NCBI GenBank assembly: GCA_963828495.1
Contig: CAWHFJ010000013.1
Coordinates: 71,952 to 135,951, forward strand
DNA length: 64,000 nucleotides
DNA from: Candidatus Omnitrophota bacterium
Lineage (GTDB): Bacteria > Omnitrophota > Gorgyraeia > Zapsychrales > Fredricksoniimonadaceae
Direction of reading: 5' to 3'
Numbering within the stretch: the stretch's first letter is position 1; the number at the start of each line of letters is the position of its first letter. Position numbers and translations under genes: made by a program. Below the pieces are notes generated by a model that saw only the letters and a list, made by a program, of their open reading frames with translations, had not been told where the DNA came from and did not search any database. This document shows, piece after piece, positions 29,790 through 52,240 of this stretch.

Positions 29790-31595
29790 TTATCCAAGAC
29801 TCCCGTAAGCAAAAACAGCCATTATGTAGACAATACAAGCAGCTAACAAAACAAAATTAAAACCCATAAACTGCGCAATGATGATGGCCAACATGGATCC
29901 CAGAACACTGAAACCACAATTAATCCCCCAAGCCCATGGCATAAGCCCAGGATCCCTTTTCGAGATCGCCTTAAGCCCTGTTGGGAAAAATAATCCCAAA
30001 AAGCATCCTGCCGGAGCGAGCAAAATGATTATTAACAAAATGCGTGCCCATAAAGGCCATGCCATAATGCCTTCCAAGAATAAAGTCATATTTAAAAAAG
30101 AAAATATTAAAAATAGAACCCCTATTATCATAAAACGAATGAACCCCACACTCCATTTTTTTATAATATCCCTCACCAACGGTAAAAGATAACTACCCAT
30201 ACCCGTCCAAAATAAAAGCCCAGCTAATACAACAGAAATGGAATAGATCGGGCTTCCAAGAAATAAAACAAATTTTTGCATTAAGGGGATTTCAACAAAC
30301 ATATACCCTAAACCAAGACACGCAAAATAGGCTATAAAATACCCTGCTCTCAATCCCGATAACGACGAATCCACACGTTTAAACATCCCCAAAGGCACAA
30401 AAATAAAAAGAGTAATAAATAAAACTGCTTGAAGTAATACAAAACATTGTGTCCAGAATATAATTGGCCCTGTGTGATGGTATATGGTAGGGTTAATCAA
30501 ATAATCCCAATAAAACTTATAATATTTATAAAAAAAAGGCTTATCGTCTGTCACCACAGAAATATCATAGGGATAGGAGCTCATGAACTGTCGGGATTTC
30601 CCATCACGGTAAGCTTGTGCGTAAAGGTTAAAGAACCTGAACGGGTCGTTCGGTCCCATTTTATTAGGAAAAAGAAGTCTTCCTTTACGTTCACTGGCGT
30701 AGGTTGACAAAACTTCTATCTCTTCTGCCGTAAAAGGAGTTTTGCGAACAAGCGTAAGTCCCCATGTATTGGCATCGAAAATCAACACATTGTCCCAGGG
30801 ATGCTCAATGCCCATTTCCTTCAAAGCTTGAAACGCCATAGCCTCGAGTCGCAAGGTCTCACGAGGTGGCTTAAAAAGCCACCTAAAGAAACACAACACG
30901 CCTTTATCATTCATAATCCGCAGATAATCTTTCAATGCCTCTTTAGTGTACAAATAACTTTCCGCATAGGCATACGCCCCAGAAGAAAGGCCATTAAAGG
31001 TATCGACACCATTTAAGATAATATAATCGAATTTTCCTGATGGTTGCGTTTTGACAAGATGACGGGCATCAACAGGATAAATGTTCCCTTGATCATAAAT
31101 TTTTCCCGAATAAATGTAAGCAGCGCCGCCTTTAGACATGTTCCTAACAATCTCTGTATTAACCTCGGCCCCAATAACCTCTTTGGCCCCATGCGTACGG
31201 GCCATAAAAATATCGCGCCCGCCACCGGCCCCAATAACAAAAACTTTGGGATTTTTTAATAATAAATAGGGAAGCTCAACAATCGTACTGAATGATTGTG
31301 TTTTAAATGGTGTTCCCTTCCGACCAAGCACCTCATAACGATAAACCGGTGTCCCTGACAGAAAATTGGTGACAAAATAAGCAAATTCAGGATGGGGTTC
31401 GATATTGACCTGAAAAGGAATGGTAGAATAAAAAAAAGACGAGCGGAATTCTTGGCCTTTCATTCTATAAAGATCTGTTCTGCCTAAAGGCTGCCAATGG
31501 GAGGACAACAAATCATAACTTTGTTGAGAAAAATATCCAGGGATCCATTCCCAACCTTTTTGAGGATCAACCGAATACGCCAACGGTTCTGGCAT
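29790..31595 (-). CDS. spermidine-synthase-like (class I methyltransferase fold) domain fused to a C-terminal polytopic membrane domain
   Basis: 601-aa ORF with VFVIGAGGGRDI...GAEVN...YIILNGVD (SpeE-like) followed by about 7 TM segments. Confidence 0.65.
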   Translation of the reverse strand: MPEPLAYSVDPQKGWEWIPGYFSQQSYDLLSSHWQPLGRTDLYRMKGQEFRSSFFYSTIPFQVNIEPHPEFAYFVTNFLSGTPVYRYEVLGRKGTPFKTQSFSTIVELPYLLLKNPKVFVIGAGGGRDIFMARTHGAKEVIGAEVNTEIVRNMSKGGAAYIYSGKIYDQGNIYPVDARHLVKTQPSGKFDYIILNGVDTFNGLSSGAYAYAESYLYTKEALKDYLRIMNDKGVLCFFRWLFKPPRETLRLEAMAFQALKEMGIEHPWDNVLIFDANTWGLTLVRKTPFTAEEIEVLSTYASERKGRLLFPNKMGPNDPFRFFNLYAQAYRDGKSRQFMSSYPYDISVVTDDKPFFYKYYKFYWDYLINPTIYHHTGPIIFWTQCFVLLQAVLFITLFIFVPLGMFKRVDSSLSGLRAGYFIAYFACLGLGYMFVEIPLMQKFVLFLGSPIYSISVVLAGLLFWTGMGSYLLPLVRDIIKKWSVGFIRFMIIGVLFLIFSFLNMTLFLEGIMAWPLWARILLIIILLAPAGCFLGLFFPTGLKAISKRDPGLMPWAWGINCGFSVLGSMLAIIIAQFMGFNFVLLAACIVYIMAVFAYGSLG

Positions 31596-47555: not shown

Positions 47556-48191
47556 ACCTAATTCCACAACTAATTTTTCAACCGCCCATTGAGGGTCAAG
47601 ACGGCTGCGTTTGATATTCAAATCCGCCTCTTGCAAAGCTTGAAGCCCTCGCTTGAAAATTTCTGAACCGCAAAGCCTGCCTTCTTTGCTCCAATACCAC
47701 ACCAACGCAGGCATGATCTGCAAAGGATGCACATTATCGTTAAAAAAAAGGTTCAGCATCTTCAATGCCTCAGCGCCCCTCCCGGCAGTGATCAACTGGG
47801 TCATATCAAAAACATTGGGACCTTCAGGCTTGGCAAACACCACTGTCTTGGTATAAAGAACCAAATCTTTTAGGTCGCCTTTGAACGTCTTTTCTGCCGA
47901 TTCTAAAATCACATCGCAATATTTCGCCGGCTTCTGGCAAAAATTAAGCAGGACCTGAATATCGGCGGATTTTAATTTGTGTACCTGGCGTAGGACGATC
48001 AGGCGTACGGGAATCACAACCGGCAGGGTCAAGAAGGATTTTTGTAGCGCGTCATCAGGAAGTTTATTGGCATCCAGATTATCGAAATCAAAGCTCAACG
48101 CTTCCTGGGAATTTTTAAAAAATTGACTTTTGATTTCGATGATTCTGGCATCTTTGGCGGCCAGGTCATCACCTAGAAACAGATAAATCAT
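47529..48191 (-). CDS. holA: DNA polymerase III delta subunit, compact form
   Basis: 220-aa ORF with MIYLFLGDDLAAKDARIIEIK, a typical HolA N-terminus. It holds the lptE-holA position as in Proteobacteria, but is shorter than the canonical ~330 aa. Confidence 0.6.
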   Translation of the reverse strand: MIYLFLGDDLAAKDARIIEIKSQFFKNSQEALSFDFDNLDANKLPDDALQKSFLTLPVVIPVRLIVLRQVHKLKSADIQVLLNFCQKPAKYCDVILESAEKTFKGDLKDLVLYTKTVVFAKPEGPNVFDMTQLITAGRGAEALKMLNLFFNDNVHPLQIMPALVWYWSKEGRLCGSEIFKRGLQALQEADLNIKRSRLDPQWAVEKLVVELGLLRRRKGT

Positions 48192-49680: not shown

Positions 49681-50973
49681 TTAACTGGCTTTGTCAATGT
49701 GCTTAGGGTTGGAACCGAAGCAATTGGGCCTTTTCTGCTTGGGGGTCAGCTGTCCCGCGGTTTGGGCCGGCAAAGAGGCCTTCAAGCGTATGCCGTTTTC
49801 CAAAAATGTGACCTCATGGACCTGGCCCTGACTGTGGGCCAAATTGATCAAATCCATACGATCGGCCGGCAATACAATATCAATATCTACCACATCTTGT
49901 GATAAAACACCCTCAATCAATAAAAGCAACTGTTGCACATTTTCCCCTTTAAGAGCGGAAATACCGATGGCATCCCCACCATTCTTCTTGAATTGCCCCA
50001 AACGTTCTCTGTCTTCAAGTTTATCTATTTTATTCAGCGCCATGATCGTAGGTTTGTCCAACACGTTAAGCTCATCTAACACGGCATTGACGGCATCGTA
50101 AAATTTTCGATGGTCCGAATGACTGATATCCAGCACATGCAATAACAAATCCGCTTCTTGAACTTCCTCTAAAGTAGCTTTAAAAGCTTCGATAAGGCCA
50201 TGAGGCAAGGCGTGCATAAATCCGACGGTATCGGAAAAAATGACTTTACGATTATTGGGCAGCAAGGCCTGGCGGGAGAGCGAATCGAGCGTAGTGAAAA
50301 GTCCGTCGTGTACGATGGCTCCTGCCTGGGTCAATGCATTTAAGAGGGTCGATTTGCCGGCATTGGTGTACCCGACCAATGCTACCGTCGGGATTTTCTG
50401 GTCTTTGCGTTTTTTACGTTTGACCTGGCGGCTTTGGGTGACTTCTTTAAGGTCTTTCTTAAGTCTCGTGATACGCTCACCTATCCGTCGCCGGTCAACC
50501 TCGAGCTTGGTCTCCCCCGGGCCGGAGGTGCCGATGCCGCCACCCGGACGCGACATTTCTTCTCCATGGCCGGAGAGCCTGGGAAGCCTGTATTGCAGCT
50601 GAGCCAGCTCTACTTGCATTTTACCTTCCAGAGAAGTCGCGCGCCTGGCGAAAATATCAAGAATGACCTGGGTCCGGTCTAACGTTTTGATCCCAAAGTC
50701 ACTTTCCAGATTGCGTTGCTGCGTGCCCTTAAGATCACAGCTGACGACAACAGCATCTATGCCTCCAGCCTGGCACAAGGCCGCAATCTCCTCGACCTTG
50801 CCCTTGGTGAGCATATGAGAGGCTGTGGGCGGCATGGTCTTGCAAAAAACGGTCTGGACAACTTCGCCGCCGCAAGACGCAATAAGCTCCCGCATCTCCC
50901 CGGCCTCATCCTCAGGAGACCAGCTACTATGCGCATGCTCCACAACCATGGCTAATAAAATTCTTTCTACCAT
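49681..50973 (-). CDS. hflX: ribosome-associated GTPase HflX
   Basis: 430-aa ORF with an HflX N-domain (LDIFARRATSLEGKMQVELAQL), G1 GYTNAGKST, G3 DTVGF and G4 NKID. Confidence 0.92.
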   Translation of the reverse strand: MVERILLAMVVEHAHSSWSPEDEAGEMRELIASCGGEVVQTVFCKTMPPTASHMLTKGKVEEIAALCQAGGIDAVVVSCDLKGTQQRNLESDFGIKTLDRTQVILDIFARRATSLEGKMQVELAQLQYRLPRLSGHGEEMSRPGGGIGTSGPGETKLEVDRRRIGERITRLKKDLKEVTQSRQVKRKKRKDQKIPTVALVGYTNAGKSTLLNALTQAGAIVHDGLFTTLDSLSRQALLPNNRKVIFSDTVGFMHALPHGLIEAFKATLEEVQEADLLLHVLDISHSDHRKFYDAVNAVLDELNVLDKPTIMALNKIDKLEDRERLGQFKKNGGDAIGISALKGENVQQLLLLIEGVLSQDVVDIDIVLPADRMDLINLAHSQGQVHEVTFLENGIRLKASLPAQTAGQLTPKQKRPNCFGSNPKHIDKAS

Positions 50974-51005
50974 AACCTTACTTTCTCAAATATATCCTAG
51001 TGCCG

Positions 51006-51166
51006 GTCTATTCGACCATTGTATTTCCTTCTCAGGCACGCTTTGCCGCCCAGCGATGCGGCTTCGCTAGTCTCCAGGCTGATTTGCCACCGCCATCTAG
51101 GCGAAGGTGGACCATGCCAAATCAGCCTTCTACTACCTTCGAAAAAAATACAATGGCCGAATAGAC
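51006..51166 (-). ncRNA. candidate 161-nt structured RNA (hflX 5' leader element or independent, 6S-like long-hairpin sRNA)
   Basis: 21-bp closing helix (51006-51026 / 51146-51166), whose one non-Watson-Crick pair is G-U only on the minus strand. Inner 10-bp helix (51077-51086 / 51118-51127) plus CCACC/GGTGG and GCC/GGC helices. The promoter-like element ends 7 nt upstream. Confidence 0.35.
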
Positions 51167-51172
51167 AAACGC

Positions 51173-51181
51173 ATTATAGCA
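51173..51181 (-). promoter_or_regulatory. extended -10 promoter element TGCTATAAT
   Basis: The minus strand 51181-51173 reads TGCTATAAT (TGnTATAAT consensus). No good -35 is present. The predicted start site is G at 51166, the first base of the closing helix. Confidence 0.4.
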
Positions 51182-51205
51182 ATAAATTTGTCATATAGAT
51201 GCCAT

Positions 51206-51322
51206 CATTGTAAGTAATAAATTTGTTCTTTTTGCGACTGTAGTTTTTAGCCAAAGCATGAGACCTTTGGCGTTAAAAAAACGATCCCAGGAGCAAAAAG
51301 AACAAATTTATTACTTACAATG
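51206..51322. repeat. perfect 30-bp inverted repeat with 57-nt spacer, right arm overlapping the miaA stop
   Basis: 51206-51235 (cattgtaagtaataaatttgttctttttgc) is the exact reverse complement of 51293-51322. The spacer contains its own 6-bp hairpin at 51251-51270. Confidence 0.9.
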
Positions 51323-52240
51323 CTGCGTTTGCTCGACAATAATTTCCGCTATCTGTTGCGCACTCTGGCCCGCCGTGATATCTATCCACGTCAAACGCTT
51401 GTCCCGTCGAAACCAGGTCAACTGACGCTTGACATAGTGGCGGGTATTCAGCTTCATCAAATACTTGGCACGCTCCAGATCATACTCCCCTTTTAAATAC
51501 CCCATGACCTCAGGAATACCGATGATCTTACTAGCGCTAACGCTTAACGGCAACGCTACGACCTGCTTGACCTCCTCAACTAATCCTCTTCTAAACATAT
51601 CATCGATACGGGCTCCAAGTCGTTGGTAAAGTTCCTCCCGGGGACGATTCAAGGCAAAGAGTCGGATAGGCATTTTCCCCCACAGCCCTTCGCGCTTGGG
51701 TTGAAGTTGGGACAATAGCTGCCCTGTCGATAAAACTACTTCCAAAGCCCTAATAATCCTCTGAGGATCATTAGGGTGGATCTTTGCTGCTGCCTGCGCG
51801 TCTAAACCTTTCAGGCGCTCATGCAAGAAAGCCGGGCCGCGGACTTGAAGCTCTTGGGTCAATTCTGCCCTGATATCTTCATCGGCCGGTGTTCCCTCGA
51901 AGATGCCGTCCAGCAAGACCGACATATACATCCCGCTTCCGCCGACGATCAAAGGTCTTTGGCCACGAGCCTGTATATCTTGAATAGCACTGCACGCTAA
52001 CTGGCGGAAGTGCGCCGCATTAAAATTTTGGGTCACTGAAAGGATGTCTGCCAAATGATGCGGAATTTGGGAACGTGCCAAGACTGACGGTTTATCACTG
52101 GCAATAGCAATTTCCCGGTAAACCTGCATGGCATCACAACAGACAATCTCGCCTTCAAACAACCTGGCCGTGGCCAAACCTATCTCGGATTTACCGACAG
52201 CGGTTGGACCAACGATGAAAATAAGAGGGATCTCTTTCAT
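51311..52240 (-). CDS. miaA: tRNA dimethylallyltransferase
   Basis: 309-aa ORF with IFIVGPTAVGKSEIGL (P-loop), PHHL, LIVGGSGMY and RHYVKRQLTWFR. Confidence 0.92.
   Translation of the reverse strand: MKEIPLIFIVGPTAVGKSEIGLATARLFEGEIVCCDAMQVYREIAIASDKPSVLARSQIPHHLADILSVTQNFNAAHFRQLACSAIQDIQARGQRPLIVGGSGMYMSVLLDGIFEGTPADEDIRAELTQELQVRGPAFLHERLKGLDAQAAAKIHPNDPQRIIRALEVVLSTGQLLSQLQPKREGLWGKMPIRLFALNRPREELYQRLGARIDDMFRRGLVEEVKQVVALPLSVSASKIIGIPEVMGYLKGEYDLERAKYLMKLNTRHYVKRQLTWFRRDKRLTWIDITAGQSAQQIAEIIVEQTQHCK

Follow-up and report, generated by a model that had tools for sequence, protein, structure and literature searches.

Two neighbouring genes, confirmed by Pfam, frame this locus: miaA, which encodes an IPP transferase (51311..52240, minus strand), and downstream of it hflX, which encodes a GTPase (49681..50973, minus strand). 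Throughout, the window denotes the whole 64-kb stretch of DNA that was analysed, and L numbers denote the loci compared with it. The two genes are separated by a gap of 337 nt, which contains no minus-strand ORF of at least 60 aa, in agreement with the preliminary description that no hfq-like ORF occurs here. The attention drawn there to the position, which is that of hfq in Enterobacteria, proved to be a red herring, as miaA and hflX simply abut in relatives. Two hairpins, designated element A and IR-B, are found between the genes; no other short-range inverted repeat in the 64-kb window is as long, and each of the arm sequences of element A is unique to the locus within the window (expected number of further occurrences, 0).

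Element A (51006..51166, minus strand) is a 161-nt closed hairpin ending 32 nt upstream of the hflX ATG, and it represents one copy of a dispersed repeat family, recognized by nhmmer and a covariance model and aligned in alignment A3. The coordinates originally given for the hairpin, the −10 box upstream of it and G51166 were all reproduced. As minus-strand RNA, 51006-51166 has a predicted folding energy of −85.5 kcal/mol compared with −47.5 ± 4.1 for shuffled sequences (z −9.2; 0 of 200 shuffles as good), and the plus-strand fold is weaker (−68.0 kcal/mol, z −8.3). The closing helix, P1, is delineated by the fold, the consensus and covariation; its 5′ strand, a terminal inverted repeat (51135..51166, minus strand), pairs with its 3′ strand (51006..51037, minus strand), which is the best-conserved part of the family (mean column identity 0.96 versus 0.91 for the 5′ strand). 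The 21-bp closing helix reported earlier is present but was underestimated, since the fold contains 26 uninterrupted pairs, then a 2 × 2 GA/GA internal loop (51139-51140 / 51032-51033 in the window copy) and then four more pairs. The single mismatch between arms 51166-51146 and 51026-51006 is a G-U pair in the minus-strand RNA and A-C on the plus strand. The minimum-energy fold also recovers the other elements described before, namely, an inner helix (51128-51118 / 51086-51076, 11 bp), a CCACC/GGUGG helix and a small GC hairpin on the 3′ side. Based on covariation, the apical arm (51076..51128, minus strand) comprises P3 (11 bp; 51118-51128 with 51076-51086, minus strand), a conserved unpaired AUGGUC, P4 (51106-51110 with 51087-51091, minus strand) and a variable loop. 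The side arm P5/P6 (51040..51067, minus strand), supported by the alignment and by covariation, is a hairpin with a conserved CGCUGG loop; in the window copy a 2-nt deletion reduces P6 to 5 bp (51058-51062 with 51045-51049).

Directly upstream of element A lies the second long hairpin, IR-B (51203-51331), which the preliminary description had missed and which emerged from inverted-repeat and motif searches. Its right arm (51203..51240, minus strand) carries the sequence motif2 in forward orientation, and its left arm (51288..51331, minus strand) carries motif2 in reverse orientation and overlaps the last miaA codons together with the TAA stop (..QHCK*). The paired portions, 51203-51240 and 51288-51325, are 38 nt long, 92% complementary and span the miaA stop codon. 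The interior of IR-B (51241..51287, minus strand) has a small hairpin of its own (GCCAAAG/CUUUGGC), and its sequence is conserved in other copies that combine the two hairpins. A third, degenerate copy of the motif2 arm is located at 51167..51192 (minus strand), and it is inside this copy that the extended −10 box TGCTATAAT falls (51181-51173, minus strand), a circumstance overlooked earlier; the last T of the box is 7 nt before G51166 (G1), the first base of the closing helix. The 32-nt stretch adjoining the hflX ATG (50974..51005, minus strand) lies outside the repeat, is native to the locus and has its orthologous counterpart at the end of the L048 spacer.

The miaA–hflX junction in related genomes

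Homologues of HflX place the window in Candidatus Omnitrophota. For comparison, we used contigs from relatives in which the surrounding genes stand in the same order, namely, SPOR/TPR gene, miaA, hflX, TPR gene, lptE and holA. In L003 (HflX identity 86%) miaA and hflX overlap by 4 nt in ATGA, i.e. the spacer is −4; the spacers are 24 nt in L050 (87%), 36 nt in L054 (85%), 40 nt in L051 (83%), 48 nt in L053 (91%), 57 nt in L047 (90%) and 145 nt in L048 (89%). Element A is missing at the junction in all seven of these relatives (HflX identity 83–91%, spacers of −4 to 145 nt), as judged by nhmmer for L003 and L047-L051, by reading of the L053 spacer, which holds nothing recognizable, and by the 36-nt size of the spacer for L054. 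The covariance model likewise gave no match in L003, L047, L048, L050 or L051. The sole contig with an identical 337-nt gap, L002 (sample ERZ25039473), belongs to the same strain (HflX identity 99%) and is hence uninformative, and in L001 (94%) a different palindromic sequence is found upstream and the locus is broken by the contig end. Since the spacers of the seven relatives are short and devoid of element A, the 337-nt gap results from a lineage-specific insertion. Its extent can be estimated from homology between the window and L003 or L048, which stops in the last miaA codons (~51327-51331) and resumes 32 nt upstream of the hflX ATG, so that ~326 nt were inserted. Judging from these alignments, a composite repeat inserted in this lineage makes up the whole spacer from ~51331 to 51006.

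The insertion provides miaA with a new end (QHCK-stop). L021, whose MiaA is 91% identical, shares this end encoded by the arm; the ends in L003 and L048 are different. This miaA 3′ end recurs three times, in the window, L021 and L037. In the latter two the element points the other way with respect to miaA, and hflX does not follow; the next ORF is uvrC-like in L037 and one of no assigned identity in L021. The insertion also separates a gene pair that overlaps in one relative (L003).

Members of the repeat family and their consensus fold

Approximately 16 further copies of element A were found in an Omnitrophota genome and in metagenome contigs. A scan for exact arms, with one genome per species, returned one true match, in an Omnitrophota MAG (L005), where the element lies downstream of an ilvN-like gene and between convergent genes. 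A scan of metagenome contigs with degenerate arms returned 41 loci, 18 of which contain the whole element according to nhmmer and the covariance model; as L032 and L043 are identical, these correspond to 17 distinct loci. The other 23 were considered as possible autonomous elements with the same ends and rejected, being chance matches to the arms only, mostly in coding DNA. Two different copies, L011 and L024, are located on a single 98-kb contig (Ga0182027_10000208). The copies are 152–195 nt long, with a GC content of 0.52 and arms of 26–31 bp; L011 and L024 lack the 5′ strand of P3, and L021 and L013 lack the 5′ third. A search of the window and 28 loci with covariance model R1 added no copies, distant ones included, and gave no match in L001 or L048, and in viral contigs there were 0 matches for the conserved core and 0 for motif2. 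Copies in L009, L017 and L018 run into a contig end, and the one in L021 lies at most ~100 nt from the start of the sequence examined; such breaks are what one expects of a repeat.

The family is multi-copy and has no fixed locus. Its members adjoin at least 14 different gene pairs, and the flanking genes are unrelated housekeeping genes (aminotransferase/HPPK, MoxR, AddA/AddB, ilvN, cysK-like, ParA/ParB, OsmC, UvrC and others). With respect to the downstream gene, seven copies have the same orientation and seven the opposite one; with respect to the upstream gene, the ratio is 10 to 4. These positions bear directly on one of the functions originally proposed, a cis-acting hflX leader that would be an attenuator or a thermosensor, possibly with a leader peptide. 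The location 32 nt from the hflX start codon would suit such a role, and some hflX homologues elsewhere are under leader-peptide attenuation. However, conservation of the element in orthologous spacers was looked for and is absent in 7 of 7 relatives, and the copies stand beside unrelated genes in both orientations, so that the leader is already refuted as the function of the family. The 27-codon ORF inside the element is present and reads as claimed, but at least 5 of the 11 full copies have lost its start codon (L028, L005, L038, L044 and L037 have AAG, ACG or CCG instead of ATG) and indels, which occur in the apical loop, shift its frame. The attenuator option fares no better: there is no terminator-like site in 50800-51500 and no U-run after the closing helix. 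Overall, a dedicated hflX leader is a very improbable explanation of element A.

In the window and in five other copies, element A is joined to IR-B. The order IR-B, a linker of ~50 nt and element A is found in the window, L014, L024, L027 and L037, with homology extending over the whole unit and unrelated flanks. In L023 a short IR-B lies immediately 5′ of element A, and in L005 motif2 arms are present on both sides of it. Within the ~440 kb of sequence examined, motif2 is confined to the neighbourhood of element A copies. The possibility that motif2 is a general promoter of the genome was considered and rejected, as it occurs at a single locus in 64 kb and elsewhere only beside copies of element A. 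Spacers devoid of element A (L048, L053 and L001) share short modules with the flanks of its copies elsewhere. The miaA–hflX spacer region behaves as a mosaic of repeat modules.

Covariation was analysed in an alignment of 11 full-length copies with 68–95% pairwise identity; inclusion of truncated copies in RNAalifold had yielded a poor structure, and the full-length copies alone were used afterwards. In the consensus, P1 (31 pairs, with the conserved GA/GA loop) leads into a three-way junction with two arms, P2-P3-P4 and P5-P6. The first consists of P2-P3, the conserved unpaired AUGGUC, P4 and the variable loop, and the second of P5-P6 closed by the conserved CGCUGG loop; the junction itself has a 3-bp helix, 3 unpaired nt on the 5′ side and the structured side arm. 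Across the 55 consensus pairs, 97.3% of the cells are paired in the 11 copies, a figure to be read with the caveat that the structure was derived from the same sequences and that, owing to shared descent, cell counts overstate the number of independent events. Double-sided changes affect 13 pairs, compared with 4.4 ± 1.6 after column shuffling (none of 500 shuffles reached 13) and 0–4 in controls with slid partners, bearing out the expectation of a conserved, covarying structure across the family. Most of these changes fall in P3, P4 and P6: in P3, 5 of 11 pairs are changed on both sides and 100% of the cells are paired; in P4, 2 of 5 pairs are so changed; and in P6, 4 of 8 (GCCGCAU/AUGCGGC, GCUGCAU/AUGCAGC, GCCUCCC/GGGAGGC). 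P1 has 97.9% of its cells paired, and 9 of 11 copies retain the G-U pairs of this helix at alignment columns 18, 22 and 32. Unpaired columns of the junction are as conserved as the stems (0.91 versus 0.89), and the 3′ half is better conserved than the 5′ half (0.93 versus 0.83).

A minus-strand structure had been claimed on the strength of one G-U pair, and the family data sustain the claim: on the window-minus strand, G-U occurs in 9 columns (35 cells) and A-C in 3 columns (3 cells), cell counts again being inflated by shared descent, and 12 of 12 copies are more stable on that strand, by 5.5–22 kcal/mol (mean 15.6). The fold is thus a conserved, strand-specific three-way junction. As regards the nature of the folded molecule, wobble pairing (G-T in DNA) and compensatory change are just as compatible with a single strand of DNA that folds.

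The consensus fold also bears on the likeness to 6S RNA. Under this proposal, element A would be a 6S RNA or a 6S-like RNA that imitates an open promoter and binds RNA polymerase, and the length of ~160 nt, the long closing helix and the asymmetric central region agree with it. In contrast, the architecture is a three-way junction, with its 3-bp helix and structured side arm, instead of a rod with a central bubble, and the genomic distribution differs as well, the element being multi-copy, variable in location and absent from close relatives. Nor does it match the covariance model: a search of the whole window and 12 loci with family copies against Rfam, 6S models included, gave nothing at the gathering score, and no 6S match was obtained for 50900-51400 even at E ≤ 10, where the only matches were sub-threshold ones of IR-B to plant microRNA precursor models, i.e. 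to generic long hairpins. We therefore regard a 6S-type function as exceedingly improbable.

Transcription signals

The extended −10 box at 51181-51173, 7 nt before G51166, is a good one in the window copy, as had been stated. In a strict test, a −10 box 4–9 nt upstream of the element is present in 3 of 13 copies (window, L032 and L017), no better than the background of 19%, and a family-wide box was rejected on these grounds; by eye, an A/T-rich upstream box can be seen in 10 of 13. L032 and L017, with TATAAT/TACAAT boxes, are two of the four copies in which the upstream gene is divergent, a number too small to weigh. A consensus scan detected no full sigma-70 promoter and no −35 match at the window locus. 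Given the strict boxes in 3 of 13 copies and the lack of a full sigma-70 call, self-transcription does not appear to be a feature of the family.

These signals are central to the idea that the copies of element A are genes that encode either a small RNA acting in trans or an RNA that partners a protein. Such an RNA would be transcribed from its own upstream box, start at G1 and be trimmed to the closing helix, and the copies would have spread by duplication. Covarying stems, conserved bases in the junction and loops, minus-strand specificity and the absence of the family from Rfam are all consistent with such a gene, as are the well-placed box in the window and the strict boxes in L032 and L017, in which read-through is excluded by the divergent upstream gene. 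However, most copies lack a strict box, there is no terminator, and some copies are devoid of a whole helix strand (L011 and L024) or of the 5′ third (L021 and L013). Furthermore, element A is tightly linked to a second hairpin and the insertion reaches into the terminal codons of a gene, both of which are reminiscent of a mobile element, and RNase III would probably cleave a closing duplex this long and nearly perfect instead of leaving it intact. Accordingly, of the leader-or-small-RNA proposal in the preliminary description, the leader and 6S parts did not hold and the independent small RNA survives as a minority reading, which we consider unlikely.

Comparison with mobile repeats and origin of the insertion

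Tests of 256 boundary offsets revealed no consistent flanking direct repeat of 2–8 nt, none of the copies adjoins a gene for a transposase, reverse transcriptase or integrase, and no longer element with the same ends is present among the 41 loci; mobility is therefore deduced from distribution only. Several other kinds of element were considered and rejected. There is no nearby reverse transcriptase gene, as would be expected for a retron msr/msd; the ends do not fit GTTRRRY, which we take to define an integron attC site; only a TAGCG pentamer is shared with a plasmid single-strand origin as we take it to be defined; and no recombinase gene of the kind expected for an IS110 bridge RNA or a TnpB omega RNA is adjacent.

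As in classical bacterial MITEs (e.g. Coxiella QMITE, ERIC, RUP and BOX), which have terminal inverted repeats of 23–30 bp, stable predicted transcript hairpins, occasional sigma-70-like promoters and intergenic locations (PMC10969869), element A is small, non-coding and bounded by terminal inverted repeats, has no conserved ORF, and occurs in several dispersed copies with empty orthologous sites. Old target-site duplications can decay (PMC10969869). Unlike these repeats, element A has no target-site duplication and no parental IS in the loci examined, is not AT-rich (GC 0.52) and has interior helices that covary. To our knowledge, covariation of interior helices has not been reported for MITEs.

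Correia elements (CREE/NEMIS) of Neisseria are also similar in layout: these are likewise ~100–160 bp long and non-coding, with ~26-bp terminal inverted repeats around a conserved core, have many intergenic copies, often just 5′ of genes, vary in presence among close strains and give transcripts that fold into long hairpins. Correia elements carry promoters, some copies creating them at their ends, bind IHF and form hairpins that are RNase III substrates (PMC2649163; PMC10969869). The counterpart of such promoters would be the window box TGCTATAAT ahead of G1, with the reservations that 3 of 13 copies have a strict box and that a −35 match is lacking. Element A differs from Correia elements in having neither TA nor another target duplication and no sequence similarity to them, in its core, which is a covarying three-way junction with conserved loops, and in travelling with IR-B.

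BIMEs are mosaic combinations of several repeat modules, and the modules common to different spacers in the element A family are reminiscent of them. REPs and REPINs are likewise extragenic, multi-copy, ~100-nt hairpins without target-site duplications, and REPIN hairpins, which are thought to act as DNA, are maintained through compensatory changes (PMC3116915), as is the hairpin of element A. This parallel raises the possibility that the fold operates at the level of DNA: one strand would fold as ssDNA and be recognized by a strand-specific enzyme acting in trans, e.g. an HUH/Y1 transposase encoded by a single-copy gene, as has been suggested for REPINs and RAYTs, in which case transcription would be irrelevant and any influence on hflX a side effect. 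Such a mechanism would accommodate a strand-specific structure that tolerates G-T wobbles, the compensatory changes, as in REPINs (PMC3116915), the lack of target-site duplication expected of single-strand transposition, the lack of a family-wide promoter and of a terminator, and the conserved loops, which would suit recognition by a protein. Moreover, L011 and L024, two copies on one contig, share the deletion of the P3 5′ strand, implying that a form without P3 has spread. On the other hand, the ends of element A (GTCTAT... and ...ATAGAC) lack the GTAG/CGTC tags of known REP superfamilies (PMC3733652), and its interior is a branched structure of 160 nt with asymmetrically conserved halves, not a doublet of two inverted 20–40-nt REPs. 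In addition, there is no fixed flanking tetranucleotide, unlike in IS200/IS605-type insertion, and no RAYT or TnpA gene is present in any locus examined, although such single-copy genes could lie elsewhere in the genome. A DNA-level fold is thus possible, but we hold it with limited confidence.

Overall, the element A family resembles known small mobile palindromic repeats and departs from them in lacking the target duplication of strict MITEs and the REP tag of REPINs. It is unusual in combining an RNA-like pattern of covariation with a fixed partner hairpin. The conserved loops and the asymmetric halves exceed the needs of a passive hairpin and hint at a specific partner; since a passive hairpin leaves them unexplained, more novel readings stay alive. 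One of these, which we put forward only tentatively, is that element A represents a new class of structured nucleic acid, the three-way-junction core of which, defined on one strand by invariant bases in the junction and loops and by covarying stems, would be the ligand of a dedicated protein and which would spread through Omnitrophota genomes, as RNA or ssDNA, as a module together with IR-B.

Element A belongs to a dispersed, multi-copy family, is polymorphic in presence at an orthologous site, and its insertion has rebuilt the 3′ end of miaA. Searches of the literature on Omnitrophota repeats and RNA motifs yielded no description of such a family, and Rfam has no entry for it, so it appears to be a previously undescribed, dispersed and apparently mobile folded repeat of Omnitrophota. 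The reading that we favour, and to which we assign about an even chance, is that of a non-autonomous mobile repeat akin to Correia, ERIC, MITE and REPIN elements that acts as a folded single strand. According to this favoured reading, a composite palindromic repeat, IR-B plus element A, would have been inserted between miaA and hflX in one lineage. Its fold would act as a single strand, most likely RNA, which could be produced by read-through from the upstream gene (miaA in this case) or, in the window copy, from the box TGCTATAAT. The insertion would uncouple hflX from miaA and place a very stable hairpin of 26–31 bp, possibly along with a promoter, upstream of hflX. By its predicted length, the near-perfect 26–31 bp duplex would fall in the size range of RNase III substrates and, by analogy with Correia elements, the hairpin may be cut by RNase III or may stabilize the downstream message. 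We infer that any effect on hflX is incidental and that the element is not a dedicated sensor or regulator of this gene.

For the biology of hflX the insertion is accordingly of little consequence, as element A says nothing specific about hflX control. It provides an example of an insertion that splits a translationally coupled gene pair and rewrites the end of miaA. Furthermore, the family behaves in genomes like a mobile element and at the same time shows the kind of covariation normally used to call functional RNAs, which advises caution in screens for RNA motifs. More broadly, this amounts to a first account of a family of mosaic intergenic repeats in the uncultured phylum Omnitrophota, and if a partner protein exists, the family would offer a lead to a new mobilization or RNA–protein system.

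Deleted and truncated copies of element A

Several copies of element A, the 161-nt closed hairpin of the dispersed repeat family, are incomplete. Two copies found on one contig, L011:13637-13788 and L024:4718-4870, have lost the 5' strand of helix P3 while keeping its 3' strand; the segment deleted is 9-10 nt long and is bounded by GGC repeats. The P3 5' strand is missing in both; therefore, the helix-less form has persisted or spread. In two further copies (L021:98-239 and L013:796-919), the structured strand is truncated or carries other sequence on its 5' side, whereas the 3' ends are intact; no 3'-truncated copies were seen away from contig ends. This 5'-only truncation agrees with the stronger conservation of the 3' half of element A. 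One nearly invariant feature of the 3' strand of helix P1 is a Shine-Dalgarno-like motif, GAAGGA, followed after six bases by a mini-ORF, AUG-GYC-GAA-UAG (window 51012-51033, minus strand). Both are sequestered in the P1 helix, and they probably arise incidentally from the sequence of the inverted repeat.

Nested and additional inverted repeats

IR-B, the second long hairpin, which is joined upstream of element A in the window and in some other copies, also occurs as long variants with a nested palindromic insert of ~130 nt (L014:400-570, L024:4950-5120 and L027:730-900). For IR-B including the nested insert, the more stable fold, by 10-14 kcal/mol, is on the opposite strand from that of element A. 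The insert may represent a third repeat family residing inside the second. The window also holds two weaker short-range inverted repeats, one with 22-nt arms 264 nt apart (31006-31027 / 31292-31313) and the other, inside the lptE/holA region, with 21-nt arms 24 nt apart (48078-48143).

The miaA-hflX junction in relatives

In the same-strain contig L002 (4001-5294 and 7484-9026), hflX is split into two ORFs, and the hflX and TPR genes are duplicated downstream in inverted and partial form, which is probably a long-read assembly error or chimera. The closest non-identical relative, L001 (HflX 94%), carries upstream of hflX a palindromic element of ~105 nt (L001:100-210) that differs from element A and is not detected by R1, the covariance model of the element A family. 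Its ends (CTATTTCTTGCTCGGCA ... TGCCGAACACATAATAG) are similar to the element A termini, and its flanks have modules in common with those of the A copies in L014 and L024. This palindrome may be a sister family of element A in the same hot spot. The 48-nt miaA-hflX spacer of L053, a relative with the same gene order, contains a module, ATTAAGGGGACACAATAYTTAATT (L053:190-215), that is also present in L027 (~940-965), within the linker that precedes element A there. Fragments of the repeat family accumulate at the miaA-hflX junction of this clade.
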